64,000 nt of DNA, from IMG/VR virus record IMGVR_UViG_3300023213_000432, positions 1 to 64,000 of that record. One strand, given 5' to 3'. The first letter of the stretch is position 1, and each line of letters begins with the position of its first letter. The position numbers and the translations under genes were made by a program. Source of the stretch: a virus. Lineage: Duplodnaviria > Caudoviricetes. Shown one piece after another: positions 708 to 50,854 of the stretch. The notes under the pieces were generated by a model. That model saw nothing but the letters and a program-made list of their open reading frames with translations. It searched no databases and had not been told where the DNA came from.

Positions 708-725
708 TTCCTATCGCCTAACAGC
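708..725 (+). repeat. dispersed 18-bp motif, degenerate copy
   Basis: ttcctatcgcctaacagc, 2 mismatches to TTCCCATCGCCTAACGGC. Confidence 0.75.
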
Positions 726-757
726 GGAAAACCACTAAGCACACAAGGACACGTGTC

Positions 758-1021
758 ATGCTCATCCTGATCGTCAAAGGAACATCTTTGGACGCTCAAA
801 GAGCTTCGGAATGCCGAGGTATCCCCTATGTTCTGCACGGAATTTTCAAATGGGATATCGAACCTCCCATAGCAATGTATTGTCTTTTGGTTTCCAAGAA
901 GTATTGGAATCAGGTTGCCCGTTGGCAAGAAGAAGAGGAGCAGGCTCCATATCCTGTAGGAACTCTTCTCTACTTTGGTTCGTATTTCCCCGAGATCCAC
1001 GGTAACGCTTATATCCGCTGA
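758..1021 (+). CDS. hypothetical protein
   Basis: ORF downstream of motif, ends just before tRNA-Leu. Confidence 0.55.
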   Translation: MLILIVKGTSLDAQRASECRGIPYVLHGIFKWDIEPPIAMYCLLVSKKYWNQVARWQEEEEQAPYPVGTLLYFGSYFPEIHGNAYIR

Positions 1022-1025
1022 TCTT

Positions 1026-1109
1026 GCCGAAGTGGCGGAATTGGTAGACGCGGCGGATTTAAAATCCACTGGGCTTTAGCCCATGAGAGTTCGATTCTCT
1101 CCTTCGGCA
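1026..1109 (+). tRNA. tRNA-Leu(TAA)
   Basis: GCCGAAG/CTTCGGC acceptor, D loop GGAATTGGTAGAC, loop TTTAAAA, long variable arm, T loop GTTCGATT; CCA not encoded. Confidence 0.95.
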
Positions 1110-1117
1110 CACAAAAT

Positions 1118-1135
1118 TTCCCATCGCCTAACGGC
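1118..1135 (+). repeat. dispersed 18-bp motif
   Basis: exact TTCCCATCGCCTAACGGC just 3' of tRNA-Leu. Confidence 0.95.
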
Positions 1136-1332
1136 ACCTGCAAAACCAAGGAAAGCAACAATCTACAAACCTGTGAGAAAACCATGAATCGCTCCGAACA
1201 CAAGATCCGCGATATCCTAATCTTTTTGGGGTGTTGCTGGTGCATTCTGAAATTGGTTATCTATCTCATGGTAATGTAAGTGAGAACCTTCCAAACACTC
1301 AAGCAATTTCCCTGTCCGAAAGAAGAATAATC

Positions 1333-1755
1333 ATGCTTTATCTCAACGCATATGCAGTTGTCCCAGCCTATGGTGGTGCTGAGGAAGGCGGATGGTGGTA
1401 TGATTCCGGAATTCCTATCGCCAGCATTCCCATTCCCACCCAACGAGAACCCGGCAAAACCTATTACATGCAAGATGGCAAACCAATCATTCAGGGTTGC
1501 CAATATTGCGAAGGAACTGGGAAAGTAGAAGGAGAGCCAGAGGAAGACGATCTTATTTACGATCTCAACTATACTCCGTTGATTCCTTGCTCTAATTGTG
1601 GAGAGATTCCAGACAATCCCGAAACCGTGCAACATCAAGTGGAGTATCTGAAACTTCATCTTGCCGATGAGATGGAAAGACGGGAAGAACTGATCATTGC
1701 TTTGGAAAATCACTTTGCAGAGCATTTTCCAAAAGAACGCCCTACCTACGAATAG
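1333..1755 (+). CDS. hypothetical phage protein with CxxC pairs
   Basis: YGGAEEGGWWYDSG motif, CQYC and CSNC; start re-called at MLYLN. Confidence 0.75.
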   Translation: MLYLNAYAVVPAYGGAEEGGWWYDSGIPIASIPIPTQREPGKTYYMQDGKPIIQGCQYCEGTGKVEGEPEEDDLIYDLNYTPLIPCSNCGEIPDNPETVQHQVEYLKLHLADEMERREELIIALENHFAEHFPKERPTYE

Positions 1756-1890
1756 AGACAAATTGCTTGAAGCGCTCTTTGCAGATGGCTTTTCCTGCTC
1801 CTAATAGCCATGTAGAAGCGTTTTGCTTATCAGAAGAGCAACAACCATTTCAAATTGTAAAGAAGCCAATTCTGTGCCAGCAAATCGAAT

Positions 1891-1908
1891 TTCCCATCGC
1901 CTAACGGC
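1891..1908 (+). repeat. dispersed 18-bp motif
   Basis: exact copy, 20 nt before ATG 1929. Confidence 0.95.
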
Positions 1909-1928
1909 AGAAAGCCACAAAACAACCA

Positions 1929-2282
1929 ATGGAAACCTTTACCAATAAAGAACTACTCGAAGATTGGGATCGACACGGAATCATTTCTTCTTGCGTCTTT
2001 CATTGTCTGCCTGTTGCCGACAAGAGCTTCATGCAGGAAGTAGAAGCCAAACAAGCCGTCGAGATCATCCTAACTTTCAATGGTCGAGAGGTTTCCTTCA
2101 AATCTTTTCTGGAAAATCTCGCCCAACAATACCAACAATCTCTGACTCAAGAAGCTCGCAAAGTAGTCAAGGAAAGAATGGGCAATCTTTGGGAAATACT
2201 GGATCAACTCACAACCCAAGTTGATCGTAAGATCGAGGATGCCTTTTATCAGGCTTTCAATTCGAATTTGAGGGAAGAATAA
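1929..2282 (+). CDS. hypothetical protein
   Basis: 117-aa ORF after motif. Confidence 0.7.
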   Translation: METFTNKELLEDWDRHGIISSCVFHCLPVADKSFMQEVEAKQAVEIILTFNGREVSFKSFLENLAQQYQQSLTQEARKVVKERMGNLWEILDQLTTQVDRKIEDAFYQAFNSNLREE

Positions 2283-2328
2283 TCATACCTATGAAAAACC
2301 TCCTCAAAGACCAGGTTGTTGGAAACAC

Positions 2329-2346
2329 GTCCCATCGCCTAACGGA
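2329..2346 (+). repeat. dispersed 18-bp motif, variant
   Basis: gtcccatcgcctaacgga. Confidence 0.9.
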
Positions 2347-2386
2347 GTGTAAATCAAAGTTAGCTAAACCTAACAGAGGAAAAACA

Positions 2387-2683
2387 ATGGATAAGGAAAA
2401 AATTGCGTCTCTGGCTTCCAAACTGGTCTCCGAATGTGAAGGAGATTACTCGGTCATCAAGAATGCCGTGGAAGAAGCCCTTCTCAATCGAGAAATCCTG
2501 AAAGAGCAAGTGGTCAAAGCTGCCCGCTCTCTCTACAAAGGACAGACGATTCCCCTTCGGATGATAGCGGGTCATATCTCCGCAACCTCCACCTACACCT
2601 TCGATCAGGTTTATGATGTCCTGCGAACCACATTTCCCGTGGCAAAAGGTAAACACGGCGGAGTTCATATCCCGGCGGTTTGA
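2387..2683 (+). CDS. small putative winged-helix-like protein (family with 14531, 50896)
   Basis: RBS GAGGA; C-terminus FPVAKGKHGGV resembles paralogs; fold is inference. Confidence 0.65.
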   Translation: MDKEKIASLASKLVSECEGDYSVIKNAVEEALLNREILKEQVVKAARSLYKGQTIPLRMIAGHISATSTYTFDQVYDVLRTTFPVAKGKHGGVHIPAV

Positions 2684-2710
2684 AGCTCCCCTCCAAAAGG
2701 TAGTTATCAA

Positions 2711-3010
2711 ATGAACAGTAAAAAGAAAGCACCTTCTGTGCCAGGATCTCGGTGGCGAGTATCCTCAACCCAAAAAGATGGTTCGGGATCCCGAGTCGGC
2801 AAAATGGAAAATGTCGGCATTTTCGATGAATTGGTTGTCGATGATTGGATTCATCTCGAACAAATGGATACCCACTACTGGTGGATGCGATTGGGCGGGG
2901 TTAATTTTGACTTGTATCTGGACAAGAAAGGTCAACTCACCATTGCGGTGCGTAATGCTGTTCTCGAACCATATGCAAAGTATGCTAAACGCTTGGTAGG
3001 AAAGTCGTGA
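2711..3010 (+). CDS. hypothetical protein
   Basis: ORF track, GTGA overlap with next. Confidence 0.65.
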   Translation: MNSKKKAPSVPGSRWRVSSTQKDGSGSRVGKMENVGIFDELVVDDWIHLEQMDTHYWWMRLGGVNFDLYLDKKGQLTIAVRNAVLEPYAKYAKRLVGKS

Positions 3011-3225
3011 GCGAACGATTTGTGTGTGGATGTGTGATCACGTTCAATGACGGTGGACCGGCTGAGGAACAAGTGCTCGGACGTGGAACATACGAGGAGT
3101 GTGAACAGATCGATCGCTTAATCGGAGCCATCTCATATTCGGGCGAAAGACCAGTGCGTGAGGCGCGCTTTGTGATTGCGCCGGAAAAGAAAATAACTAA
3201 AAGGCAGGGGAAGCCGTTCCGCTGA
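3007..3225 (+). CDS. hypothetical protein
   Basis: GTGA-coupled ORF. Confidence 0.6.
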   Translation: MSERFVCGCVITFNDGGPAEEQVLGRGTYEECEQIDRLIGAISYSGERPVREARFVIAPEKKITKRQGKPFR

Positions 3226-3698
3226 ACGTCCCGTACCCCGAAGAGCGGCTCACAGCTCGGAAAACAAAGGGTGTCGCAATTCGGTCGAATTGATTGGGGA
3301 AACACTATGCCTCTTTCTTCCTTCGTTTCTTCTCTTTCCTTTCTTGCTCTCCTTTCACTTTTCTTCATCAGGTCTCATTTCGCTCGGCATATGTGTCTTC
3401 GAGGTTCCTCATGTCTTCATCTTCCTTCGTATTGTATGCCTCTGTTTGTCTTGAGCCCGTCGCGTAATTCCGCGGAATTGCCAGGCGGGCGGCTCTGAGC
3501 CGTGATCATAGCTTCTGTGAGGGGCTATTTGACAAGCACCTATGAAGAATTACCTGAATCCTTACCATTGGCTTTTGGGATTGAAACTCCAACGGATTTG
3601 CAAGGTGTTATCCACACTGGATGTCAAGAGATCCAAAGACAATGTGGTTTTGGTTTTACAATGCTACGAACGGATTAGATTGATCGTTCAGGGTTATT

Positions 3699-3716
3699 CT
3701 TTCATCGCCTAACCAA
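3699..3716 (+). repeat. dispersed 18-bp motif, degenerate copy
   Basis: ctttcatcgcctaaccaa; core CATCGCCTAAC retained. Confidence 0.65.
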
Positions 3717-3729
3717 AAGGAAAACGAAC

Positions 3730-3930
3730 ATGTGCAACTGGACATACTTCGAGGCACTCATTCAAATTCTTCAAGAACGAGGAGAAAACCGCAAAGGAGG
3801 AACCTTTGAAGGACTTCATGCCCAAAATGCGGCGGAATGCGACAAGAAGCTTTCCAAGTTGATGTTTGCGGCAGCCTATGCCCTCATGGAACTAGACGCC
3901 TATGTGGCACTAAGAACAGAAAAACCATGA
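3730..3930 (+). CDS. hypothetical protein
   Basis: AAAGGA RBS, ATGA overlap with next. Confidence 0.65.
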   Translation: MCNWTYFEALIQILQERGENRKGGTFEGLHAQNAAECDKKLSKLMFAAAYALMELDAYVALRTEKP

Positions 3931-4196
3931 AACGTCATTACGAGGAAGACGACGAAGATTTCCCGGCTCCAGCTTACCAAGTGGTCGGCTATAAAGGAAT
4001 TGCTTTTTACGTCCTAGGCTGGGAAACGGTTCCCGACGAAGACACGGAATGGACTGGAATCGAGAAGCGAACCGGGAAAGTTGTTTTAGTCATGGTAGGA
4101 GATGACCATCACTTCGCTTTCGATCCAGAGGACATCAAGCCTTTAAACCGAGAAGAATACTGTGGATCTTGCGGGCAGATGGGCTGCCATAATTGA
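3927..4196 (+). CDS. hypothetical phage protein
   Basis: start re-called at MKRHY (ATGA overlap); ends YCGSCGQMGC. Confidence 0.75.
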   Translation: MKRHYEEDDEDFPAPAYQVVGYKGIAFYVLGWETVPDEDTEWTGIEKRTGKVVLVMVGDDHHFAFDPEDIKPLNREEYCGSCGQMGCHN

Positions 4197-4214
4197 TAGA
4201 ATGGAGACAAAAGA

Positions 4215-4430
4215 ATGACTCAACTCATAATCATAATAACATCGTTTTACTTGGGAGGCATTGTCGCCTACATTGGCAGTTTCACTCGCAATCTGATTGA
4301 TGAAGGGTTTTATGAAACACATCCGTTAAGCGAGTTATCAATGATAGAAAAATTATATTGGTTTTGCCAAATGACTTGGTATGGAATGTGTTGGCCGATT
4401 AACATATTTGGCGTTGGCAAACGGAGTTAA
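4215..4430 (+). CDS. small membrane protein, paralog of 31048
   Basis: hydrophobic N-terminus with FYLGGxVA shared with 31048-31245. Confidence 0.65.
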   Translation: MTQLIIIITSFYLGGIVAYIGSFTRNLIDEGFYETHPLSELSMIEKLYWFCQMTWYGMCWPINIFGVGKRS

Positions 4431-4432
4431 CA

Positions 4433-4762
4433 ATGGGCTGGGAAAAATATGATCCGTTTCGTCCTCCCAAAGAGGGACAGAGAATCCGATGTGCAAGCCA
4501 AGGGGAAGTTAAAGTCAGTAAGTACGGTCTTATAGGAACTAGATTACTTCAAGGTCGTTCTTGGGACGATCTTGCCAACAAAGACTGGGAAGTCTTTTGG
4601 GAAGATGAACCTTGTCCTCCCACTCTACCCGAAGCTAAACCCAAAGTTCCATCGGATAGAGAGCAAGAGCTTGCTTTCTTTCGAGGCATTCAATCCGATG
4701 AATGTCCTTGCAAAATAAAACGAGAAGTCTGTATCTACCATCGAAATTTTCCCATCGCCTAA
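4433..4762 (+). CDS. hypothetical protein, W.PYD..PP family
   Basis: collinear similarity to 18051-18374 including WEDEPC and terminal Cys/His cluster. Confidence 0.75.
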   Translation: MGWEKYDPFRPPKEGQRIRCASQGEVKVSKYGLIGTRLLQGRSWDDLANKDWEVFWEDEPCPPTLPEAKPKVPSDREQELAFFRGIQSDECPCKIKREVCIYHRNFPIA

Positions 4763-4766
4763 CGGC
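4749..4766 (+). repeat. dispersed 18-bp motif
   Basis: exact copy overlapping stop of 4433 ORF. Confidence 0.95.
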
Positions 4767-4793
4767 GGCAAAACCTTAAAAGGAGAACTATAC

Positions 4794-4976
4794 ATGTTTC
4801 GTCCCGGAGATCGTGTCAAGTATGTCGGTCAGCGTTTCCGCAAACAGTTGGAGGAAGAGATCGGTACCGTCCATTCTCAAATCCAAGGAAAGCCTCATGT
4901 CTTGGTAGTGGATTACCAATATCAGGAAGGGATCGACAGTTATCTTTTACCAGAAACCTGTTTGCTACGGATTTAA
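4794..4976 (+). CDS. small SH3/KOW-like protein
   Basis: AGGAG RBS; FRPGDRVKY..IGTV pattern. Confidence 0.65.
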   Translation: MFRPGDRVKYVGQRFRKQLEEEIGTVHSQIQGKPHVLVVDYQYQEGIDSYLLPETCLLRI

Positions 4977-5186
4977 GACGTAGAGAAAAATTTTGGATTA
5001 GATGAGATTACCTATCAATTCTAATCCACTGGCGAAGCATAGTTAGGGAACGATAAGCCAATAGAAGGCTGCAACTTTTGATGGAATAATCGATCCGTCC
5101 CTTGCAGGGGAAAAGAGAAGATGATTATATCTTCTCGTGCCGAGCCTCCAATTTGCCGTTTCTCCAATAATAAAGGAAAACAAATT

Positions 5187-5354
5187 ATGGATCAAATCAT
5201 TTCTTTTTTGATTTCCCTCGGAATGTTTATTCTATGTGGTTGGGCTTTGCTCTACCATCCAGAAAACCCCGCAATTCATGCGGTAGCTTTCATTGGAATT
5301 CTGTGCTTTGGTTCGGTAATTCTTTATCAAGTCATGCGCCTATCCGACTTTTAA
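5187..5354 (+). CDS. small two-TM membrane protein
   Basis: AAAGGA RBS, two hydrophobic stretches. Confidence 0.6.
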   Translation: MDQIISFLISLGMFILCGWALLYHPENPAIHAVAFIGILCFGSVILYQVMRLSDF

Positions 5355-5439
5355 TAGTCTGAGAGCGAGAGATTCGATCTGATTATGTCAGTTCGCTTAA
5401 CAACACTAAAAGATCAAGAAATAGCCGAGGCGAAACTCC

Positions 5440-5814
5440 AAAAGAAGTCGATATAGGGGTCGATGTATATATCGATGTGGGGTCACATAGTACTTTTCTT
5501 GTCCTAAAGGACTTACTACACTGCCTGTCTTAGATCATATCTAATATAATTAAATATGATCAGTAAGCTACCAAGAACAGCGCCTCTCATAAAGACTATT
5601 TTTGTACATAACGAGATATATACTTTAAGTAGTTATCTGTTAGGCTACTTTAAATAATTTAACAGTTATAACCTTTTTGGTTATTTTTTAGATTGATCAA
5701 AGTAATTTGACCTAATCTTGCGGCTCTGATACCGCCATTAGACTTATCTAATGTGCTCAAAGAGAGTAATCTTTTTGAGAGAACCTCATGACTTTAGTCA
5801 TGAGAGTATGTCAG
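5440..5814 (+). mobile_element. eroded IS200/IS605 remnant ending in a right-end hairpin
   Basis: 5785-5814 ctcatgactttagtcatgagagtatgtcag matches the RE of the 44.3 kb IS at 26/30 nt; no ORF, IGVDV-like RuvC-I vestige; left limit uncertain. Confidence 0.6.
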
Positions 5815-5986
5815 GAACTGCCTTTCTGTAAACAAACGCAAGCATTCAATAGCGAAAAAGTCGAGATTATGGAACAGGGTATCATTCGTTGATTAATTGC
5901 CGGCACCTTTGGGTGGCTCCCATTGTCAGCCCGAAATGATACCCTGTTCCATGCTTTTGACAATCATTCCAAGGACAAAGCCAACA

Positions 5987-6175
5987 ATGTCAGACAAAGA
6001 ATTCAAAGCAACGCACCGTTTGGTCGATAAACACGGCATGGAAACTGGAGAAACCGTAATGAAAGTCGGAAACCAATATTTCACTTATGATGCTTGGTAT
6101 CATTTCGACCCTCCTGAAACCGATATCTCATTACGTAAGATGGGGTGGTTTGCTGTCAGCTCCTTTCGCCGCTGA
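5987..6175 (+). CDS. hypothetical protein
   Basis: start re-called at MSDKE behind AAGGA. Confidence 0.6.
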   Translation: MSDKEFKATHRLVDKHGMETGETVMKVGNQYFTYDAWYHFDPPETDISLRKMGWFAVSSFRR

Positions 6176-6195
6176 TTTCAAGGATAATAATTACT

Positions 6196-6429
6196 ATGAG
6201 CGATCAAACCACTTACGCAGTCCAGGTTTCTTGGACAATGACGGCTACTGTAATGGTAGAGGCAAAAACCGAAGAGGAAGCCAAACAAATTGCCTTTGAC
6301 TGTGGATTACCGAAAGGTGAATACGTAGATGATTCTTTTAAAATTGATGAAGTTCATCGCGCCAAGTTTGGAGAATTACGAGATTTTCCGGGCATGAATG
6401 GATTGCCAGCTAAAATCAAAGAAGATTGA
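6196..6429 (+). CDS. hypothetical phage protein (V.VEA..EEEA type)
   Basis: AAGGA RBS; YAVQVSW..VMVEAKTEEEAK pattern. Confidence 0.65.
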   Translation: MSDQTTYAVQVSWTMTATVMVEAKTEEEAKQIAFDCGLPKGEYVDDSFKIDEVHRAKFGELRDFPGMNGLPAKIKED

Positions 6430-6431
6430 TT

Positions 6432-6449
6432 TTCCCATCGCCTAACGGC
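6432..6449 (+). repeat. dispersed 18-bp motif
   Basis: exact copy between stop 6429 and RBS of 6465. Confidence 0.95.
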
Positions 6450-6464
6450 AAAAGGAAAAAAATT

Positions 6465-6722: not shown

Positions 6723-6725
6723 GAT

Positions 6726-6983: not shown

Positions 6984-6987
6984 AACA

Positions 6988-7221: not shown

Positions 7222-7228
7222 AAAACCT

Positions 7229-7420: not shown

Positions 7421-7422
7421 AC

Positions 7423-7440
7423 TTCCCATCGCCTAACGGC
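7423..7440 (+). repeat. dispersed 18-bp motif
   Basis: exact intergenic copy. Confidence 0.95.
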
Positions 7441-9937: not shown

Positions 9938-10097
9938 GAAAGACAAGTGTTTTATGTTGGCTCCGCATCCCTCCATGGATCCTTCGTGGGGTTGTCATGT
10001 TTGTCGTACCTTGAACGGAGACCATCGGGAACGATGCAAATTCTGCAATCATTACCGATGTGATAAAGAAGTGGATTCCAAGAATCTTCCAAATTAA
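9930..10097 (+). CDS. small zinc-finger protein
   Basis: WGCHVC..N..HRERCKFC. Confidence 0.6.
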   Translation: MDKKDKCFMLAPHPSMDPSWGCHVCRTLNGDHRERCKFCNHYRCDKEVDSKNLPN

Positions 10098-10112
10098 AAA
10101 AGAAAGCTAAAC

Positions 10113-10490
10113 ATGGAAACTTTCACCTTTGAGTATGTAAATGATGATGGATTAGAGCAAGAGGGATCTCTTCCGGCTCGATATGAAGTTTGTCCTCGTT
10201 GCCAAGGAAAAGGCAAACATTGCGATCCCAATATTGATGGGAACGGAATTACCGAAGAGGAATGGAGCCAGTGGGATGAAGATGAAAAGGAAACATATCT
10301 TAGGGGCGGATATGATGTTATTTGCGAAGAGTGTCGAGGACAGAGAGTTGTCTTAGAAATTGACATGGTTCATATCGAAATCCACGGAACCTTTGAGGAA
10401 AAAGAATTGCTAGAAAGATATTTGGAAATTCAAGAGAGTCTGGCAGAATGCGATCAGATTTCTCAAATGGAACGATTGATGGGAGCTTAA
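10113..10490 (+). CDS. DnaJ-type CxxCxGxG zinc-finger phage protein
   Basis: CPRCQGKG and CEECRG motifs. Confidence 0.7.
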   Translation: METFTFEYVNDDGLEQEGSLPARYEVCPRCQGKGKHCDPNIDGNGITEEEWSQWDEDEKETYLRGGYDVICEECRGQRVVLEIDMVHIEIHGTFEEKELLERYLEIQESLAECDQISQMERLMGA

Positions 10491-10720: not shown

Positions 10721-10981
10721 ATGAACCGACATGAATTCAAGGAAATTCTGATACGTCGAGTGTCAGAGTTAAATGGCTGTAAAGCTATTGCACTAGCAAC
10801 TGATAAAGAAGTGGTTCCATGATTGAGTATCGAGAAAGCTCCAATGATGCCTTGGATTTAGTGGATTGTTTGGATGAATTGATTACAGATGGACAATTGT
10901 TGGAAGTGGAATATGAATTGCCGGAACAGAGCGAGTCAAAAGTTTTCTTTTACCTAAAGGAACTCATATCACGGTGATCTA
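10721..10981 (+). pseudogene. frameshifted small ORF
   Basis: MNRHEFKE.. continues across apparent 1-nt indels near 10817 and 10950. Confidence 0.35.
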
Positions 10982-11302
10982 ATTCAAGATCAAATCCGCA
11001 TCTTTTAACCAAATGGTTCTAAGATGTTTATCATACTTACGAAGCTTGATGGGAATAGAATGTTTTTTCTCCTGTAAAGCTAAAAGGATACGATGTCTTC
11101 CGTCCTGAACGAACATTTTTCCATCAGGTAATTGAGCAATTTCTGGATACCCTTTAGATTTATGTTTCTGAATCCATTGAAAGCTTTCTTCTCGTAGTCC
11201 AGAAGTGTCTAATTGGACATCTTTCAGACTAATTTGAATAGGGATATGCTCTCCGTATTTTTGAGTCAGTAATTTTGCTAAAGCAATCAATCTTTTGGTC
11301 AT
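10979..11302 (-). CDS. ParB/sulfiredoxin-like N-terminal domain protein
   Basis: YPEI..LPDGKMFVQDGRHRILLA motif. Confidence 0.7.
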   Translation of the reverse strand: MTKRLIALAKLLTQKYGEHIPIQISLKDVQLDTSGLREESFQWIQKHKSKGYPEIAQLPDGKMFVQDGRHRILLALQEKKHSIPIKLRKYDKHLRTIWLKDADLILN

Positions 11303-11375
11303 GTAGATTAATACCAGAAAATTGCAGTAGGATATAATTATGATAATCTAATTCGAGGGTGTCAAAATCGCCGCC

Positions 11376-12180: not shown

Positions 12181-12198
12181 TTCCCATCGCCTAACGGC
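12181..12198 (+). repeat. dispersed 18-bp motif
   Basis: exact copy, preceded by GGGAAAA that can pair with TTCCC. Confidence 0.95.
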
Positions 12199-13087: not shown

Positions 13088-13348
13088 ATGAATGATGTCG
13101 CTTTTCTTTTGGATGTGTTTCAATCCTCTGAAAATAAGGGACAAGGGATCGCCAGCGTCCGTACCATTGTTAGGTGTCTTTATCAAGGAGATTGGGATTC
13201 TGCTTGTTCGGTGCGGCAACAAGAGAGAGACAAAACTAGAAGTCACGCAATGATAGAAGAATTGCTTGCTGAAATTTTTGGATGTCGTCTCCATTGCAAG
13301 AAAAACTGTGATAGTTGGATCTGCACCCGGAAAAATCCCATCGCCTAA
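13088..13348 (+). CDS. hypothetical protein
   Basis: AAAGGA RBS before MNDV. Confidence 0.6.
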   Translation: MNDVAFLLDVFQSSENKGQGIASVRTIVRCLYQGDWDSACSVRQQERDKTRSHAMIEELLAEIFGCRLHCKKNCDSWICTRKNPIA

Positions 13349-13352
13349 CGGC
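13335..13352 (+). repeat. dispersed 18-bp motif, variant
   Basis: atcccatcgcctaacggc, 22 nt before tRNA-Tyr. Confidence 0.9.
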
Positions 13353-13374: not shown

Positions 13375-13457
13375 GGATGATTAGACCCGTATGGTTCGGG
13401 GCGTGACTGTAGATCACGCGCCTTAGTGCCGTCTCGGTTCGATTCCGAGGTCATCCA
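13375..13457 (+). tRNA. tRNA-Tyr(GTA)
   Basis: GGATGAT/GTCATCC acceptor, CGTGA-CTGTAGA-TCACG anticodon arm, long variable arm, CTCGG-TTCGATT-CCGAG; followed by CTA not CCA. Confidence 0.9.
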
Positions 13458-13701: not shown

Positions 13702-13777
13702 GTCTCTGTATGCCGCTCGGCTTCTATCCGAGAGAAAGCTAACTGGAAACATATAGGTTCGAATCCTATCAGAGACA
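13702..13777 (+). tRNA. atypical tRNA-like RNA (possible D-armless Arg-TCT or pseudo-tRNA)
   Basis: perfect GTCTCTG/CAGAGAC acceptor and ATAGG-TTCGAAT-CCTAT T arm; only one internal hairpin CTCGG-CTTCTAT-CCGAG. Confidence 0.6.
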
Positions 13778-14440: not shown

Positions 14441-14458
14441 TTCCCATCGCCTAACGGC
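14441..14458 (+). repeat. dispersed 18-bp motif
   Basis: exact intergenic copy. Confidence 0.95.
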
Positions 14459-17076: not shown

Positions 17077-17094
17077 TTCCCATCGCCTAACGGC
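17077..17094 (+). repeat. dispersed 18-bp motif
   Basis: exact intergenic copy. Confidence 0.95.
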
Positions 17095-17143: not shown

Positions 17144-17170
17144 TGCTACAGCCGACCTGTAGCATTTTTT
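17144..17170 (+). terminator. intrinsic-terminator-like hairpin in a gene leader
   Basis: TGCTACAG-CCGAC-CTGTAGCA-T6, 5 nt before ATG 17176. Confidence 0.45.
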
Positions 17171-17410: not shown

Positions 17411-17784
17411 CTCTTGTTAGCTTAAGTTATTAAGTTAGCACGAGTAAGTGGGGAGAAACTACTTAACAAGTGTTTCTCATGCGATCTCATCAATCGCATA
17501 AGGCAAGGTATCATCGAGAATTGGTTGATGACCACGTAGATCGGTGATTACGAAAACAGGCTTGCCATTAGTAGAAGGGCGTTGGGTTAGGACACGGGCT
17601 CTTTTACGAGATAGTTATAAACTGAAATATTAAGAAAGAGCCCGGCAGAATTATAACCTGCGATCTCCAAAACTGCTAGTCTGGCGGGTTACCGCTTCCC
17701 TACGGGCTCAAAGCATTTTAACGTCCCTGCTAGAAATTGGCATCCTTCAAGACCTCCCCACTAAGATATATTGAAGGATGTCAA
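17411..17784 (+). ncRNA. candidate ~380-nt structured ncRNA, family unknown
   Basis: no ORF; six hairpins of 7-14 bp and a 9-bp long-range pairing 17447-55/17754-62; strand uncertain. Confidence 0.5.
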
Positions 17785-31724: not shown

Positions 31725-31742
31725 TTCCCATCGCCTAACGGC
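31725..31742 (+). repeat. dispersed 18-bp motif
   Basis: exact intergenic copy. Confidence 0.95.
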
Positions 31743-38085: not shown

Positions 38086-38103
38086 TTCCCATCGCCTAAC
38101 GGC
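38086..38103 (+). repeat. dispersed 18-bp motif
   Basis: exact intergenic copy, 21 nt before ATG 38125. Confidence 0.95.
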
Positions 38104-39299: not shown

Positions 39300-41024
39300 A
39301 TGTCATATTCATCTCATATCAGTAAAAATCCCTCCCAAACTGAAATGGCGCGCCCAGATCAAGTCCAGAACTCGGCAGGCGGATATGTTTTTCAGGTTGA
39401 TAAATGGCAACGTTTAGATCGTTTTCTCATTCTTGGGAACGAAGGCGGCACCTATTACGCTACGGAAAAACAACTTACCTTTGAGAATGTCAAGTGCATT
39501 TCAGAATGTCTCAAAGAGGATGCTTCTCGCACCATTCATCGGATCGTGGAGATTTCGTATGCGGGGCGAGCACCTAAAAATGATCCTGCCATTTTCGCTT
39601 TGGCATTGGCAGCCTCCCATCAGGATCTCAAAGTCCGACAAGAAGCGTTATCTTATCTTCCCCAAGTATGTCGAATTGGAACTCATTTGTTCCATTTTGC
39701 TAGGGACATCGATAAACTTCGAAAGTGGTCGCGAGGTTTGAGAACCGCAGTTTCCAAATGGTATCTTCGCCGTTCCCCGGAGAGCCTTGCTCTTCAAGCT
39801 ATTAAATATCAACAGCGAGATGGATGGAGCCATCGAGATTTGCTTCGTTTGGCTCGTCCTAATCCCAAGGATTGCAAGAAGCCGGTGGATACAGCTACGC
39901 ATGCCAAGTTTGTTCAGCAGTTTGGCTCTGCCTTCCGTTGGATTGTGGATAGGGATCATCTTGGAGAACGTAAAGTCGGAGGAGAATTGAAAACCAAATC
40001 TTTTCCGATTCGGGAGTATCAAGGATACCAGAAAACAGATCTTCCGGCTTTGATTCAAGCCTTTGATCAACTTCATGCTTCTAAAGATTTAAAAGAAGTT
40101 ATCACTCTCATTCGGGAATTTAAAATGCCCCACGAAGCTGTTCCTAATGAATGGAAGGATAAACCGGAAGTTTGGGAAGCTTTACTAGAAGGAATGGGAA
40201 TTACCGCCATCATTCGTAATTTGGGAAAAATGACCAATGTTGGATTGTTAAAACCCTTGGGAAGTAATACCACTCAGGTGGTGGAAAAATTGACTAATGA
40301 AAAAGTCCTGAAAGAAGGACGCGTTCATCCCATTGCTATTCTTTTCGCTCAAAAGGTGTATGCTCAGGGACATGGAGACAAAGGAAAGCTGTCTTGGACG
40401 ACTGTTAAGCCGATCGTAGATGCTTTGGATGATGCCTTTTATTTTGCTTTCAAGACGATTCGTCCTACTGGTAAAAATCATTTGTTAGCGTTGGATGTTA
40501 GTGGATCCATGGGATGTAGCTATATTGCAGGTACTAGTTTGTCAGCTATGGAAGCTTCGGCAGCTATGGCTATGATCACTATGCGAGCTGAGCCCAATTA
40601 TCATTTGGTTGGATTTTCTAGTGCTAGTGGTGGATATGGTGGTAAGTGGGGTGGCGGACAGTCCAAGATGATAGAGATTGACATTACTAAGAAGACTCGT
40701 CTTAACACAGTGATTGAAACTGTTTCTAAAATTCCGATGGGCGGAACAGATTGCGCTTTGCCTATGCTGTATGCTATGGATAATAAGTTGGACGTAGATA
40801 CTTTTGCTATATATACTGATAGCGAGACCTGGCATGGAGACATTCATCCTTACCAAGCTTTGAAGCAGTATCGAGAAAAATCAGGACGAAATGCTAAACT
40901 GGTTGTGGTAGGAATGACGGCAACGGAATTTTCCATTGCTGCGCCTGATGATAATGGAATGCTTGATGTCGTGGGCTTTGATACTGCGGCGCCTGACATC
41001 ATGGCAAATTTTTCTATGGGATGA
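39300..41024 (+). CDS. rsr: Ro60 / TROVE-domain RNA-binding protein (Rsr)
   Basis: NSAGGYVF..RFL.LG.EGGTYY, KYQQRDGWSHRDLLRL, vWA MIDAS LDVSGSM, TDCALPM, TDSET; start re-called behind AAAGGA. Confidence 0.95.
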   Translation: MSYSSHISKNPSQTEMARPDQVQNSAGGYVFQVDKWQRLDRFLILGNEGGTYYATEKQLTFENVKCISECLKEDASRTIHRIVEISYAGRAPKNDPAIFALALAASHQDLKVRQEALSYLPQVCRIGTHLFHFARDIDKLRKWSRGLRTAVSKWYLRRSPESLALQAIKYQQRDGWSHRDLLRLARPNPKDCKKPVDTATHAKFVQQFGSAFRWIVDRDHLGERKVGGELKTKSFPIREYQGYQKTDLPALIQAFDQLHASKDLKEVITLIREFKMPHEAVPNEWKDKPEVWEALLEGMGITAIIRNLGKMTNVGLLKPLGSNTTQVVEKLTNEKVLKEGRVHPIAILFAQKVYAQGHGDKGKLSWTTVKPIVDALDDAFYFAFKTIRPTGKNHLLALDVSGSMGCSYIAGTSLSAMEASAAMAMITMRAEPNYHLVGFSSASGGYGGKWGGGQSKMIEIDITKKTRLNTVIETVSKIPMGGTDCALPMLYAMDNKLDVDTFAIYTDSETWHGDIHPYQALKQYREKSGRNAKLVVVGMTATEFSIAAPDDNGMLDVVGFDTAAPDIMANFSMG

Positions 41025-45421: not shown

Positions 45422-45816
45422 TAGACGTTCTTTTGATTCTCTATATATTGTTTTACGGTTGCTTCTGATATACAACCTACACTTTCAGCAAAATAACTTC
45501 TTGTCCATAATGTGGGCAGCTTGCTTTTGAGATGTGGAAATTCAGTTCGTAAGATACGGCTGCTCTTGCCCTTGAGTTGCTGAACTACAAAATGTGGAGC
45601 ATGCACCGGACTACAGTGAATAAAAACATGTACATGATCTGGCATTATTTCCATTGTTTCAATGGTGCAATCAATTTCTTTAACTATTTCTGGTAAAAGT
45701 TGTCGAAGGCGTGTTTCCACCTCATCCACTAAAACTTTTCTACGATACTTTGGACACCAGATCAAATGATAGTTTATATTGAAAATTACTTTGTTGCTGT
45801 GTTTCCATCTCGACAT
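45421..45816 (-). CDS. tnpA: IS200/IS605 Y1 transposase
   Basis: YHLIWCPKYRR, HUH (DHVH), catalytic Y in YIENQ. Confidence 0.95.
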   Translation of the reverse strand: MSRWKHSNKVIFNINYHLIWCPKYRRKVLVDEVETRLRQLLPEIVKEIDCTIETMEIMPDHVHVFIHCSPVHAPHFVVQQLKGKSSRILRTEFPHLKSKLPTLWTRSYFAESVGCISEATVKQYIENQKNV

Positions 45817-45965
45817 TGCTATACCTTTGACAACTATATATCAGAGTATGCATAGATTTTGACAACTATATAACATTTTTTCTGTTAGCAACTTGCAACG
45901 CCTTCATCCAACGACTGAATGTCGTTGGCTTTTGGCTATTGGAGATCGTAAGACGCCTTCTAATT

Positions 45966-46376
45966 ATGATTCCATTATCTGTGTTATGGTTAATTGCTGG
46001 TGTGTTTACTTCTGTTCTTTTTACACTCGTAGTAAATCCAATTAGTTCTTTGTTTGGATTCTGGTATGTCTTTAAATTATGGAAAATGGGAGATAGATCT
46101 ACTATTCAGGTAATCAGGCTTTCAAGGTTCCGATGGTTGCCTTGGATCTTGGTGTTCTATTTTTTGGTGCGGCTCAACATTTATGAATATCACAAGTATG
46201 GTTGGATTAACATATTGTCTATTGTAGAAGTAATGCTTGTTGCTTCATTAATACTTGTAAGTGCCTTTTGTTTCTACTACTACTCTGATACTGGAGATCT
46301 CATTCAAGAGTGGATTGCCGCCAAAACTCAAGGGATCTGTCCATTAATTACCTTCAAAGAAAAAGATAACAAATGA
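45966..46376 (+). CDS. membrane protein
   Basis: multiple TM segments; start uncertain. Confidence 0.6.
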   Translation: MIPLSVLWLIAGVFTSVLFTLVVNPISSLFGFWYVFKLWKMGDRSTIQVIRLSRFRWLPWILVFYFLVRLNIYEYHKYGWINILSIVEVMLVASLILVSAFCFYYYSDTGDLIQEWIAAKTQGICPLITFKEKDNK

Positions 46377-46573
46377 GCACTCACTGCTCTCACAATTATC
46401 ATGCTCTCTGCAAAGACTGTAAAGAGCTAAAACCTTATTGGATATTTAAATTTAATCTCGACTGCAATAAAGTGGGCGACGAAGATAAGTGTTGTGGATA
46501 TTTCTATGCAAATGGATGTTCCAAATCAGAATTGGTTGGTAAGAAAGTTATCACTACCACAAAAGAAATATGA
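46373..46573 (+). CDS. small Cys-rich protein
   Basis: ATGA-coupled. Confidence 0.5.
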   Translation: MSTHCSHNYHALCKDCKELKPYWIFKFNLDCNKVGDEDKCCGYFYANGCSKSELVGKKVITTTKEI

Positions 46574-46836
46574 AAACTTACATCAAAGTCATTGGGAAAC
46601 ATTGTGCTCATTTGAATAGAGTTGGTTACATAGATGATGAGGTTAGAATACCTGCCAGCATGACCTATCCCTATGATACGTGGTTATGGCACATTCGTAT
46701 TCCTTTTGTTAATACTCCGTATCGTATTTCCAACTATGTCATCGCCATGCTTCCCAAAGAGTTTAAGATAATTAGTTGGTTGGAATATGCTTTTGGTTGG
46801 TTAAAACAGTTCTTTGGAAGTTGGAGGAATAATTGA
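46570..46836 (+). CDS. hypothetical protein
   Basis: ATGA-coupled. Confidence 0.55.
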   Translation: MKTYIKVIGKHCAHLNRVGYIDDEVRIPASMTYPYDTWLWHIRIPFVNTPYRISNYVIAMLPKEFKIISWLEYAFGWLKQFFGSWRNN

Positions 46837-47402
46837 AGAAGTTAATAATGATGCTTATCATAATGATGACGATAAGCAATTCAGCATATGCTGAAACAAG
46901 AAACGATCAAATAGTTGTCACTGATCGGAAACCGCATAGACGTTATGTTGGTTTGGATATTGCCGCTGGCGTTCCATCAGGCGTCATGCTTTCCGTTGCT
47001 TTCAAACCTTATTTCCAATGGATTCATCTTGGAGTTGGAGGAGGATACAATGGATTAAACGGTGGAATGCGAGGATTTCTTACTCTTGACCCGCTTCATT
47101 TCTTTCCGCTTGGCGTTTTGGGACAGGCAGAAATTGGACATTATTGGGGAGGAAGAATTCCTAGGTTGGATAAACCATTGGAAGTTTCATATGATTTCGC
47201 TTCTTTGATGGGTGGTATTCGAGGAGGCAACCCTAACATTTGGTCGATTTATGGACTGGTAGGCGTCTCCTGGATCGGGGCTCAAACCAATCATTTCGAT
47301 ACAACCATTAGTATAAAAGATCCAAGTATTAGTGTTAGTAATCCACGTATGGATGCAGTGGCGGCACCTGCGTGTCAATTAGGATTTAGACTATTTTTCT
47401 GA
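46833..47402 (+). CDS. exported protein, probable small outer-membrane beta-barrel
   Basis: signal peptide SAYA, alternating amphipathic strands, C-terminal LGFRLFF. Confidence 0.65.
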   Translation: MKKLIMMLIIMMTISNSAYAETRNDQIVVTDRKPHRRYVGLDIAAGVPSGVMLSVAFKPYFQWIHLGVGGGYNGLNGGMRGFLTLDPLHFFPLGVLGQAEIGHYWGGRIPRLDKPLEVSYDFASLMGGIRGGNPNIWSIYGLVGVSWIGAQTNHFDTTISIKDPSISVSNPRMDAVAAPACQLGFRLFF

Positions 47403-47416
47403 TAGGAAATTGAAAA

Positions 47417-47947
47417 ATGAAAAAGTTTCTAATAATATTAGTTTTTCTGGTAGGATGCATTCAAGGCAATATTCAAGAGGATATTACCAAAACGATGACA
47501 TTAGATCTTCCGGCTTCGTCTGTTTCTGGCGGAATGGCACCTTCGATTTCTGTGGATCGAATTAATGATGTCGATTTTCTGGAAGATTTCAAGCAGTTTA
47601 AAGATCTCGGAACATTCGATTTCTCCATTACCAATAATCAGTTAAAAATGGAATCTGGAGATTTTCATTTCATTGATCATGTTAAAGTTTCTTTGGATGC
47701 CACTTTTGGATCGGTTGTTCTAACGGATCATGATTTGACAGACGTAGAACGTGGATCATCGCTCATTTCGCTTCCAATTTCCCTAAAGCCGTATTGGTAT
47801 TTGGTGTTACTGGATGGATCAATTAAAGTCCACTATGTATTCACTATGAGTGGCAACGTTCCTGCTAATCCATCGATTATTCAAGCTAAAGTTACCTTGC
47901 ATGTTGTTGCTAATATAAATAAAAGCATTAATGATGTGGGTAAGTAA
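47417..47947 (+). CDS. putative lipoprotein
   Basis: MKKFLIILVFLVGC lipobox. Confidence 0.75.
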   Translation: MKKFLIILVFLVGCIQGNIQEDITKTMTLDLPASSVSGGMAPSISVDRINDVDFLEDFKQFKDLGTFDFSITNNQLKMESGDFHFIDHVKVSLDATFGSVVLTDHDLTDVERGSSLISLPISLKPYWYLVLLDGSIKVHYVFTMSGNVPANPSIIQAKVTLHVVANINKSINDVGK

Positions 47948-47949
47948 AG

Positions 47950-48135
47950 TTGAAAATTCAGGTTGGAATAGGGCGTAAAGGTTCGTTTAAGAACGTCTGG
48001 GAACATAGTAACCCTTCTATCGCACAAGCATTCTTTCTTGGATTGAGATTAAAAGAAAATCAAAAAGCGAGAATCGTTAATGAAAAAGGTGAAGTCGTCT
48101 CCAAAAAGACCAATGTCAAAAAAGAAACTAGTTAG
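47950..48135 (+). CDS. hypothetical protein
   Basis: ORF track. Confidence 0.5.
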   Translation: MKIQVGIGRKGSFKNVWEHSNPSIAQAFFLGLRLKENQKARIVNEKGEVVSKKTNVKKETS

Positions 48136-48324
48136 GGCGGGTTCTTATCTTAAAACCATTGAGGTGCTTAATGCTTCGATTGTTGGCATATTGCACCTCT
48201 ATTTGGATGCTAAGAATAATGGAGACAAAATTGCCATGTGGACGCTTGGAGATTTGTAAGAAGATTTAATTATGACCGCTAGGAGACTTAGCAATGTTCG
48301 TATGACCATTAAAGGAGATCGAAC

Positions 48325-48657
48325 TTGATTCTAGAATTGATTGAAGGTATTGTGGCGATGGGAGTAGGTGCGAGTGCTTATGGTTTGGGGCATTGGTTAT
48401 TAACTCAAAAAGGAACCCTAAATAATAATTCCATAAAACTTAATCTTAAGAAAGATAGCTACGGTGCGTATCCTTGGTTGTGGCACACGCAAAGTATGAA
48501 TCCTAGTGGATATTATTGTCCAGCTTGTGCAAGCGTTTCATCAAATAGAAAACAAATGCCAGCATGCCAATGTGATGAGTATCCTTCGATTCACTTTCAT
48601 TTTGTGTGTAATGATTGCGGGTATAAATGTTTCACGAGGACAGCAGAAGACAATTAA
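48325..48657 (+). CDS. membrane-anchored zinc-finger protein, paralog of 21862
   Basis: YPWLW..CPAC..CQCDEYPSIHFHFVCNDC..RTAEDN. Confidence 0.7.
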   Translation: MILELIEGIVAMGVGASAYGLGHWLLTQKGTLNNNSIKLNLKKDSYGAYPWLWHTQSMNPSGYYCPACASVSSNRKQMPACQCDEYPSIHFHFVCNDCGYKCFTRTAEDN

Positions 48658-48799
48658 TAAAGGAGCAGCGATACAGTGTCAGAGAAGTTTCGAAAGCGCA
48701 TTCCGAGAAAATTTCGTCCAGAGCGAGAGTTGCAAGAAAAGCATCATCGGATGGATTTTCGTCGAGAGATGGAAGAATTAGAAGAGGAAGAAGATTGGG

Positions 48800-49087
48800 A
48801 TGAGGCAGATGATTATAATGATGTCCCCAGTTGAATTAGATCGTCAAAGCTCAGTTAAAATCGACAGATGGATCGAAATTGACAGCGAAGAGTGGCGAAA
48901 TATGGATGATAATCCTGACTTCACCAAGAAGATTTTGAAGCTTGGTATGAAAGAGCCGGCTTTCATTTTCTCTGATTCGCGGGGTAGGTTATGGGGTAAA
49001 GGAAAAGATGGATCATTTTACCCGTTTCATTTTGAATATGGTAGTTTAAGAATTGGTTATCGAATTAGCAGGATGGCAGCGAACTGA
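48800..49087 (+). CDS. hypothetical protein
   Basis: ORF track. Confidence 0.55.
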   Translation: MRQMIIMMSPVELDRQSSVKIDRWIEIDSEEWRNMDDNPDFTKKILKLGMKEPAFIFSDSRGRLWGKGKDGSFYPFHFEYGSLRIGYRISRMAAN

Positions 49088-49100
49088 AAGGAAAATAATT

Positions 49101-49508
49101 ATGGATTTCAAGTGTTATTCAGATGGTAATATTGTCAAAAAGTTTGGAAAGTTAGATGACGCTTTTGAATTCGCAGAAGATGATGAAAGCGTAGATGCTA
49201 TTAGTTTTACGCTTCCTACTGATGAAGAAGTGATGCTCAGTCGAGAAGATCTCGATGAATGGGTATATGATCCGCTAGCATTAGATAAAAATGAAGCTCG
49301 AATATTGAATCATCAGTTGGCGGAGATTAATGCAGGAAGAGAAGAAGAAAGTGATCAAAGGGACGATCAAGCTGTTGATGATTTGATAGATCGTAAATTT
49401 CTATATTCAGAGATCAGATCCATTAATGGTGAAGAATGGGACTATTATACTATTAATGATTTAGGAAGACTGGCATTGAAGAAATTCCAGAAAGCAAAAT
49501 CAGGTTAA
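49101..49508 (+). CDS. acidic hypothetical protein
   Basis: AAAGGA RBS before MDFK. Confidence 0.65.
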   Translation: MDFKCYSDGNIVKKFGKLDDAFEFAEDDESVDAISFTLPTDEEVMLSREDLDEWVYDPLALDKNEARILNHQLAEINAGREEESDQRDDQAVDDLIDRKFLYSEIRSINGEEWDYYTINDLGRLALKKFQKAKSG

Positions 49509-49510
49509 AA

Positions 49511-49885
49511 ATGAAATCTGTTGCATTATGCGTGGCAATAACGATTATAATTGGATGTTCCGCAAAACCTAGTCCGGCACCCGTCTGTCCTTCGGCTGGC
49601 GAATTATTGTGTGGTAACTACTGTTGTCCCGACAGTGTGCATTATGCATGCGTGAGCGGACAGTGCCAATTGATTTCTTGTGATCAGGGATATCAATTAT
49701 GTGGAAAGGGATGTGTGGTTGCAACCGCGAATTGCTGTTCGCAAACTACTGGCACATATTGTCAAACGGGCGAAGTGTGTTGCGGAGATGGAACATGTGC
49801 CCCATGGGGCGCTTCTTGTTGTCACAATGGACGCTATTGTCCAGTAGGCCGAGTTTGTTGTAACAATGGACAAAACTGTTGTTAA
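49511..49885 (+). CDS. cysteine-rich putative lipoprotein
   Basis: IIGC lipobox, repeated C..CC units. Confidence 0.75.
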   Translation: MKSVALCVAITIIIGCSAKPSPAPVCPSAGELLCGNYCCPDSVHYACVSGQCQLISCDQGYQLCGKGCVVATANCCSQTTGTYCQTGEVCCGDGTCAPWGASCCHNGRYCPVGRVCCNNGQNCC

Positions 49886-50093
49886 TAAGATGTTTGGAGA
49901 TCAAAAAGTGAAAGAAGAGAAAGAGCCTAAGCCCGATATTGAAATACCTTCATTATTTTTCAACGATGTTCAAGTTAAACCTATAAAAAACGTAGAAGGT
50001 TGGAGTGGTATTTCTTTTACCATTAATGAACGAAGATACCGTTTAGACATGGAAGATGAGTTTGCTCAAGAACTAGCAAAGAGGTTGCTATGA
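49866..50093 (+). CDS. hypothetical protein
   Basis: ATGA overlap with next. Confidence 0.6.
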   Translation: MDKTVVNKMFGDQKVKEEKEPKPDIEIPSLFFNDVQVKPIKNVEGWSGISFTINERRYRLDMEDEFAQELAKRLL

Positions 50094-50593
50094 GTCGTCA
50101 TTGCGGTATTTGCAAACAAGAAGGACACAATGCACGCACTTGCACTCAACAAAACGAGAAGCCTGCTCCAGAAAAGGCTGAGCCCAAAAAGGAGACTTCT
50201 CCCCAAAACGAGCAATTGGAAAAAATCAAGCGAGCTGTGGCTATTCAAAACATCGGCTCCAAGAATTTAGATCAGAAAGTTAAAGAGGGTATGGTTCTTG
50301 ATAGCGTGGTGGATGATCCTAGTTTTTGGGATTGGGAACAACGAAAAATGATTTCTCGGGAATTACGAAAACTTCGAGATGAATTCAGAAAACACAAAGA
50401 ATCTAATGATAAATCCGTGTTGGCTTTGAAGGAAAAGTTTGACGAATTAGTTGTTCCAAACGAGATCGAAGTTTTGCCACATGTTCCCGGTAAGTTACTA
50501 GATGTTGAAATTGCCAATAATGAGTGCTTAGAAGGAATTATAGAGCATTCTGATTTTTCAAAAATAGTATTAGAGTCTGCTGAAATCAAATGA
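50090..50593 (+). CDS. protein with N-terminal CCHC zinc knuckle
   Basis: CGICKQEGHNARTC. Confidence 0.7.
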   Translation: MSRHCGICKQEGHNARTCTQQNEKPAPEKAEPKKETSPQNEQLEKIKRAVAIQNIGSKNLDQKVKEGMVLDSVVDDPSFWDWEQRKMISRELRKLRDEFRKHKESNDKSVLALKEKFDELVVPNEIEVLPHVPGKLLDVEIANNECLEGIIEHSDFSKIVLESAEIK

Positions 50594-50836
50594 AACCAAA
50601 AAAGAAACCCATCAAAAAGAAGAAAGCAACCACTAAGTTATCCAAAAAGCGAATGTGGGAGAAACCTAGAGCACCGAGTGAGATGTCATTTCAGGAAATT
50701 GAAGAGTTTTGGAGGGGTAATTTTTATGAATAAAATTACTGTTAGCATGCTTATTTGGAGCGCTTGTATTCTAATTCTAATTGAGATTATGGCTATCTTA
50801 GCTTTTGTTTGGTTTGTGCCCGAGTTTCGATGACGC

Positions 50837-50854
50837 TTCCCATCGCCTAACGGC
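50837..50854 (+). repeat. dispersed 18-bp motif
   Basis: exact intergenic copy. Confidence 0.95.

Follow-up and report, generated by a model that had tools for sequence, protein, structure and literature searches.

What kind of reader recognises a short sequence that recurs, always in the same orientation, in front of the small genes of a phage? The first 64,000 nucleotides (the window) of the 198,652-bp IMG/VR record IMGVR_UViG_3300023213_000432 (G000), a virus of the Caudoviricetes, carry an 18-bp motif, TTCCCATCGCCTAACGGC, that is repeated at gene junctions (Table 1). A literature search found the motif in no paper. A preliminary description had proposed an early promoter for a phage RNA polymerase or sigma factor, possibly of the N4 template-hairpin type, an antitermination or RNA-processing site, or a recombination hotspot. 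We find that the motif is best read as the upstream half of a phage-specific promoter of about 36 bp, which would be used by the host RNA polymerase and would start transcription at the 16th nucleotide after the motif. We judge the chances that this reading is correct to be about even.

Distribution of the motif in the phage genome

The copies of the motif, their strand and position, their conservation and the positional signals downstream of them could be read directly from the DNA. Matches to TTCCCATCGCCTAACGGC were counted at up to three mismatches, and the expectation was taken from shuffles. The window contains 14 such matches, all on the plus strand, against 0.01 expected. On the minus strand of the complete 198,652-bp record there is no copy at this threshold, and the nearest reverse-strand match has 4 mismatches. 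The idea that the 18-mer is a target or guide of the phage TnpB/IsrB (an OMEGA guide) was dropped, there being no reverse-strand or scaffold-adjacent copy. Two further copies lie beyond the window, at 70200 and 96941, which brings the record to 16, all on the plus strand.

The 11 exact copies listed in the preliminary description were all recovered in place and on the plus strand, as were the variants at 708, 2329 and 13335. A fourth variant, given as position 3699, is present on the plus strand, but only as a decayed copy with a 3-nt deletion; it was detected only with indels allowed and lies outside the count of 14. The reported single orientation at gene junctions held for every copy, all being intergenic as judged by a crude gene call, and so did the concentration of 12 of the 15 copies in the first 17.1 kb. 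Many copies lie 0–14 nt 3' of an upstream stop codon, and the next predicted start is 13–146 nt 3' of the copies. No terminators were evident upstream of the distal copies.

The strand and position scan that had been suggested for the whole genome was extended to a second IMG/VR contig of 118 kb (3300023212_000464; G001, identical to L022), where 14 further copies occupy the first 4 kb on one strand. The first 127 bases of G001 are the exact reverse complement of window bases 1–127, and the two contigs therefore abut and are neighbours in one genome. The 127 shared base pairs resemble a k-mer overlap. In the joined 316.6-kb sequence the 30 copies are co-directional and intergenic; 25 fall inside 21 kb spanning the contig junction and the remaining five are dispersed downstream, at 31.7, 38.1, 50.8, 70.2 and 96.9 kb.

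CheckV completeness values of 46% and 28% for the two contigs suggest a genome of roughly 440 kb, of which about 129 kb lies outside the 316 kb examined; an exact-match scan with the last 60 bases of the 198.6-kb record found no continuing sequence. Upstream of the window, G001 has genes for a baseplate J protein, a tail sheath, a ribonucleotide reductase with an intein, a UvsW-like helicase and one protein of the sigma-70 family; the window encodes Ro60, an RNA ligase, TnpB, tmRNA and tRNAs. Among cultured phages, megablast with the first 20 kb gave no match and tblastn with the sigma and sheath proteins gave remote matches only; this is a phage without a close cultured relative. The small genes 3' of motif copies matched no Pfam family, and six of them showed no mutual similarity when compared. 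A search of the non-coding parts of the cluster at its G001 end found no known Rfam family.

Conservation of the motif in diverged relatives

A scan of metagenome contigs recovered dense motif clusters, up to 8–9 copies per 3 kb, on about a dozen short contigs from other samples. A homologue of the gene preceding the window start led to two ENA contigs (L090 and L091) and to a Logan contig that is more distant (L092). In approximately 14 short contigs of diverged relatives the motif punctuates clusters of small genes. These contigs have a GC content of 44–56%, compared with about 41% in this phage, and their open reading frames share only 30–60% amino-acid identity with the genes of this cluster. 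A 15-bp core, CCCATCGCCTAACGG, is nevertheless invariant in 73 non-redundant copies, with free variation only at positions 1 and 18. Upstream, conservation in the motif logo ends abruptly, and neither a conserved partner nor a separate -35 element is seen there. The upstream GG(G)AA pairing noted earlier occurs in a few copies and finds no counterpart in this logo.

In one lineage (L032, L033 and L037) the central GCC triplet varies widely (ACC, AAC, ATC, AAG, ATT, CCC, GTC and GCA) while CCCATC and TAACGG stay fixed, and none of these changes is compensated. The motif is thus bipartite, CCCATC-N3-TAACGG, and the mini-hairpin GCC-TAAC-GGC is dispensable and, to judge from these sequences, is not under selection. 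The mini-hairpin does exist, as described, but it is marginal (-2.8 kcal/mol as RNA, -1.7 and -2.7 as DNA). Taken together, the variable triplet and the weak hairpin speak against a hairpin promoter of the N4 type and also against a site recognised by base pairing. The fixed half-sites with a free triplet between them instead fit a protein reading DNA at two half-sites 9 bp apart.

The likeness to promoters of the N4 virion RNA polymerase therefore does not go far. Early-looking small genes and a short inverted repeat within the motif are common to both, but the N4 hairpins have a 5–7-bp stem and a 3-nt loop whereas the repeat here has a 3-bp stem and a 4-nt loop, its stem triplet varies without compensation, and no giant polymerase-like virion protein was recognised. 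The proposal of an N4-type template hairpin was not upheld on these grounds, nor did the 316 kb yield a phage RNA polymerase gene.

The exact 18-mer gave five single, chance-like matches in 185,579 bacterial and archaeal species genomes and was multi-copy in none, in a search that degenerate host sites would escape. A host promoter class of the alternative-sigma type was rejected, since bacterial genomes give only these single matches.

The distant contig L092, whose marker protein is 38% identical, has TCCCATTCC three times and the 18-mer once, in a diverged form, AACCCATCGCTTGAGGGC (at 35–50, 447–470 and 1478–1493). The diverged copy again stands exactly 15 nt 5' of an ATG. Of the two half-sites, the 5' one may, from this pattern, be the older.

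Positional signals downstream of the motif

An ATG lies exactly 15 nt 3' of the motif in 18 of the 73 copies, and no other offset is represented more than 5 times. In 15 of these 18 the start codon is part of CATG, and a Shine-Dalgarno sequence is mostly absent; the copy at 6432 is the sole one of this class within the window. Among the 51 copies outside the class, position 16 after the motif is a purine in 46 (p = 8e-6), a pyrimidine at 15 is followed by a purine at 16 (Y15-R16) in 29 (p = 1e-7), and position 5 is an A in 40. The signal at positions 15 and 16 is present both in this phage and in the relatives. Weak positional signals were seen as a purine at 1, A at 4–5, C at 7–8, a purine at 9, Y15, R16 and R18, with no positional signal beyond position 18. 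On these statistics the element would lengthen to about 36 bp. The simplest single cause of both the ATG peak and the Y15-R16 signal is a transcription start at position 16. If this is the start, the genes with ATG at that position would be leaderless. The motif would then span about -33 to -16 and the conserved A would fall at -11, which are the distances of a bacterial holoenzyme promoter.

The genomic setting also points to transcription. As had been reported, copies precede tRNA genes: the copy at 13335 stands upstream of a tRNA-like gene with a long variable arm, which ARAGORN misses and which the Rfam tRNA-Sec model scores at 31.9 bits, below its gathering score. The copy at 17077 precedes a short RNA that ends in the terminator-like hairpin noted earlier. 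At the divergent junction at 708, nothing conserved other than the motif lies between a sigma70 promoter on the minus strand and the gene on the plus strand. The copies 5' of the tRNA-like gene and of the short terminated RNA, together with this junction, argue for a role in transcription rather than in translation or RNA processing. The perfect TTGACA-16-TATAAT promoter at the same junction indicates that canonical sigma70 promoters are in use in the host, and it sets the 18-mer apart as another class.

A sequence (T)GATATAT/A lies 6–9 nt 5' of many ATGs in the joined sequence, including those of structural genes in G001; examples in the window are at 17765, 24223 (minus strand), 54697 and 60260 (minus strand). 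It resembles a class of extended -10 promoters from which leaderless mRNAs would be made, and this class makes leaderless expression plausible for the phage.

A proposed phage-specific promoter

What follows is inferred from these observations: that the motif is a promoter, where transcription starts, that the polymerase is the host's and what kind of protein reads the motif. The half-sites CCCATC and TAACGG, 3 bp apart, would be bound by a phage-encoded specificity factor, which could be the phage sigma factor, another sigma-like factor or an activator. This factor would set the host RNA polymerase to begin RNA synthesis at nucleotide 16 after the motif, on a purine that follows a pyrimidine. 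An A-rich, weakly conserved AAnCCR at -12 to -7 would take the place of the -10 element. About one quarter of the genes driven in this way would have their ATG at the start position and yield leaderless mRNAs, and the remaining genes would have longer leaders, usually with a Shine-Dalgarno sequence. The predicted regulon would comprise the 21-kb block of small ORFan genes, the tRNA-like genes and the short RNA, plus the five dispersed genes.

Comparable systems are the middle promoters of T4, which have a 9-bp MotA box at -30 and depend on MotA and AsiA, and the gp28 and gp33/34 promoters of SPO1. There, as would be the case here, a phage-specific element replaces the host -35 region, many copies stand before small non-structural genes, and the spacing (-33 to -16, about -12 to -7, and +1) fits bacterial holoenzyme; this phage, too, encodes a sigma-family protein, seemingly expressed from a promoter of the host type. 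The element differs from them in its size, an 18-bp block as against the 9 bp of the MotA box or a 6–7-bp -35 element, and in being almost invariant across diverged phages. In addition, AAnCCR is unlike the host TAnnnT or any known phage sigma consensus, and about one quarter of the genes here appear leaderless. The motif would thus be of a kind already known, a phage-specific promoter, in a new variant; it is the kind that the sequence data support.

The only recognisable sigma gene in the examined sequence is a 209-aa open reading frame at 40025–40654 of G001, on the minus strand, with regions 2 and 4. It matches TIGR02937 (48.5 bits, above the cut-off) and phrog_351, as well as Sigma70_r2 at 24.3 bits and r4 at 17.3 bits (below family cut-off). 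The gene lies inside an operon behind a near-consensus host promoter, TTGACA-16-TATATT, and the sigma factor could therefore be made early by the host polymerase and then activate the 18-mer regulon. Related-locus and word-based homologue searches for its relatives returned the query alone. About 30 nt before the sigma ATG there is also ATAATCGAACAT (L021, ~1795–1806, minus strand), a member of an ATAAT-N4-CAT(A) class. This class recurs before structural genes in G001 and constitutes a third candidate promoter class.

The search for polymerase and sigma genes that had been recommended thus gave one sigma gene and, in the 316 kb, no phage RNA polymerase. There was no PF00940 match in G000 or G001, in a Pfam search run without a positive control, and neither T7 motif A/B matches with context nor DxDGD or two-barrel signatures were found in 316 kb. 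Three giant open reading frames of 2412, 2007 and 1689 aa had no Pfam, PHROG or PDB sequence match; their atlas features, which are leads only, resemble a baseplate wedge or laminin-G, a beta-helix fibre and a gpP-like baseplate protein.

Several points weigh against the proposed promoter. Its start site itself comes from sequence statistics, the putative -10 region matches no known sigma consensus apart from the A at -11, and 15 contiguous invariant base pairs would be unusual for a sigma-type -35 element plus spacer. In five to seven copies, with the ATG 19–27 nt downstream, a good Shine-Dalgarno sequence lies 7–18 nt after the motif; being 5' of or across the proposed start, it could be used only in read-through transcripts. 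Four copies have an ATG at offset 0, 6 or 8, 5' of that start. The sigma factor may instead serve the ATAAT-N4-CAT class, whose motif stands before its own gene, and the approximately 129 kb of genome beyond the sequence examined could encode a phage RNA polymerase.

Alternative explanations

A phage polymerase of this kind, either T7-like and single-subunit or otherwise non-canonical, is the basis of the main rival to the host-polymerase promoter, which we consider possible but unlikely. In a T7-like geometry the 18-mer would occupy -18 to -1, transcription would start on the purine directly 3' of the motif and RnnAA would be the initially transcribed sequence. The motif does resemble T7 and SP6 promoters in being a contiguous, asymmetric, highly conserved and sharply bounded block (of ~18–23 bp in these systems) that stands in one orientation before genes, in passing through a C-to-purine boundary into a purine-rich stretch, and in having no terminators between successive copies. 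All Shine-Dalgarno sequences, including those 7–18 nt after the motif, would fall inside the transcript, one gene's ATG abuts the motif directly, and the unexamined part of the genome offers room for a polymerase gene. T7-like promoters, however, have TATA at -4 to -1 in a block that abuts the start (-17 to +6), whereas the 3' end of the motif would place a GC-rich CGGC there. The statistics place the ATG peak and the Y-R signal 16 nt downstream and not at the block edge, so that the peak at +16 and the Y15-R16 and R18 signals of the long-leader copies would go unexplained. No polymerase gene of this type emerged from the signature searches described above, with their limit on the Pfam result, and the giant virion proteins are, as leads, of baseplate or fibre type.

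The motif might instead work as RNA in read-through transcripts: it could mark where these are processed or punctuated, bind an antiterminator or a regulator of translation, or imitate the 5' part of a tRNA. This we regard as quite unlikely. The copies that lie 0–14 nt after a stop codon with no terminator between are very likely transcribed through, and the fixed 15-nt distance to ATG could reflect a ruler-like cut or ribosome positioning. The motif also matches tRNA positions 2–20, including U8, G10, A14, R15 and G18-G19, its 15-nt core is identical to positions ~3–19 of real tRNA-Arg genes in unrelated phages (L065, L067 and L072), and the phage is rich in genes for RNA repair and tRNA-related functions, including Ro60 and the RNA ligase. 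The resemblance to tRNA was noticed post hoc, with a probability of roughly 1e-3, and is possibly coincidental. A partner RNA that would complete the tRNA (a T-arm followed by an acceptor complement) was sought in the 316 kb and was not found. No stable or covarying structure is seen (flank folding z = -0.74; stem triplet uncompensated), copies in front of tRNA-like and other non-coding RNA genes speak against a translational role, and the copy at 708 has no upstream plus-strand gene from which it could be transcribed through.

Operators of the stoperator type, at which a phage DNA-binding protein on an asymmetric site would block or modulate transcription of the early block, also account for some of the features and are, in our view, very unlikely. 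The gp71 stoperators of mycobacteriophage L5 and the start-associated sequences of cluster K phages are likewise asymmetric sites of 13–18 bp, present in tens of copies in a single orientation relative to transcription and in short intergenic gaps, part of them at a fixed short distance from the start codon; half-sites 9 bp apart centre to centre would suit a protein on one helix face. Start-site-like signals and an ATG at a fixed offset are not expected of a pure roadblock, though, and the plus-strand gene at the junction at 708 has no other visible promoter. The motif differs from the L5 and cluster K sites in having no Shine-Dalgarno sequence and in preceding tRNA-like and non-coding RNA genes as well. 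No repressor, integrase or lysogeny module was noticed among the scanned proteins, among which no search was aimed at a repressor or integrase.

Recombination as the primary function, with identical 18-mers as microhomology for the shuffling of small gene cassettes, is highly improbable. Gene order in the cluster is indeed mosaic and differs among relatives, and the junctions carry the motif. In L042, the homologues of gene 10113 and of the gene preceding the window start are about 600 bp and two motif copies apart; in this phage the two genes are 10 kb apart. At 10085–10115 of the window, gene 10113 still has the leader that is typical after the motif, AAGAAAGCTAAAC-ATG, but no longer the 18-mer itself, which its homologues in L038 and L042 have; the region can be taken as evidence of promoter loss or cassette shuffling. 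The PeSL elements of T4-like phages are similar in that repeated promoter-containing modules flank small open reading frames in a plastic early region of mosaic gene order. PeSLs carry host sigma70 early promoters and a stem-loop, whereas the promoter proposed here is not host-like and a conserved stem-loop partner is absent. Strict orientation, a fixed ATG offset and bipartite conservation are not needed for recombination, which is better seen as a by-product: dispersed identical promoters are probably also recombination points, as PeSLs are.

A promoter is thus the best supported of the functions originally listed for the motif, by its orientation, its intergenic position, its place before RNA genes and at the 708 junction, the fixed-distance signal and the sigma gene; antitermination, RNA processing and recombination are left as minor rivals or secondary effects. 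There is, finally, a rather small chance that the motif represents something of a new kind, either a new specificity system of ~440-kb phages (a cryptic factor or polymerase with a bipartite 15-bp site whose centre lies about 25 bp upstream of the start, no canonical -10 element and often leaderless transcripts) or a functional tRNA-like punctuation or processing of early transcripts.

Neighbouring genes and repeats

Two minus-strand genes, 360–632 and 10979–11302, lie inside the plus-strand 18-mer block. The latter encodes a ParB/Srx-like DGRHR motif and has a host-type sigma70 promoter at 11337–11365 on the minus strand; this promoter and the one at 672–699 are perfect or near-perfect. The gene just before the window start (L022 152–508, minus strand) encodes a 118-aa protein. 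It shares homology with the C-terminal domain of proteins of ~210 aa that form a widespread family, with 125 representatives at E <= 0.001. A dispersed repeat of ~330 bp, encoding a 112-aa paralogue family, is found at 55845–56174 of the window and in more than 10 further places in G000 and G001, the copies being 70–92% identical to each other. Other repeat families occur as well, for example at 94032–94390, 120029–120379 and 127328–127692 of G000.

Table 1. Motif copies and adjoining transcription features in the window.
Feature	Position	Strand	Remarks
Host-type promoter	672..699	-	Perfect TTGACA-16-TATAAT; serves minus-strand gene 360-632
Motif copy	708..725	+	2 mismatches; ATG 758 is 32 nt downstream; minus-strand sigma70 promoter adjoins back to back
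Motif copy	1118..1135	+	Exact; 8 nt 3' of tRNA-Leu (1026-1110)
Motif copy	1891..1908	+	Exact; ATG 1929 is 20 nt downstream
Motif copy	2329..2346	+	2 mismatches (positions 1 and 18); ATG 2387 is 40 nt downstream
Motif copy, decayed	3700..3714	+	TTTCATCGCCTAAC-C; 3-nt deletion and mismatches; precedes ATG 3730
Motif copy	4749..4766	+	Exact; ATG 4794 is 27 nt downstream, with AAGGAG between
Motif copy	6432..6449	+	Exact; ATG 6465 is exactly 15 nt downstream (candidate leaderless)
Motif copy	7423..7440	+	Exact; upstream stop codon 2 nt before
Motif copy	12181..12198	+	Exact; homologue of downstream gene in relative L046 likewise motif-preceded
Motif copy	13335..13352	+	1 mismatch; tRNA-like gene starts 22 nt downstream
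tRNA-like gene	13375-13456		Class II, long variable arm, probable GTA anticodon
Second tRNA	13702-13777		
Motif copy	14441..14458	+	Exact; upstream stop codon 8 nt before
Motif copy	17077..17094	+	Exact; final cluster copy; followed by two-hairpin RNA with intrinsic terminator at its end
Intrinsic terminator	17145..17170	+	9-bp stem and U run; ~50 nt after copy 17077
Motif copy, distal	31725..31742	+	Exact; upstream flank G-rich, AGCGA downstream
Motif copy, distal	38086..38103	+	Exact; precedes gene 38125/38131-38742
Motif copy, distal	50837..50854	+	Exact; ATG 50896 is 41 nt downstream

Significance

To our knowledge, nearly all that is known of huge phages comes from metagenomes, and hardly anything of their transcription programmes has been mapped. 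The motif marks one regulon of approximately 30 transcription units, mostly small ORFans that resemble host-takeover genes together with tRNA-like genes, and provides a sequence handle with which the same gene block can be located in related phages. Together with the only phage sigma factor that could be recognised, it could also readily be tested in vitro. If the proposed promoter is correct, the phage would redirect the host polymerase in a distinctive way, through a long upstream element, with no canonical -10 element and with transcription starting 16 nt downstream, often at the ATG itself, and this would add to the signs of leaderless translation in this phage.

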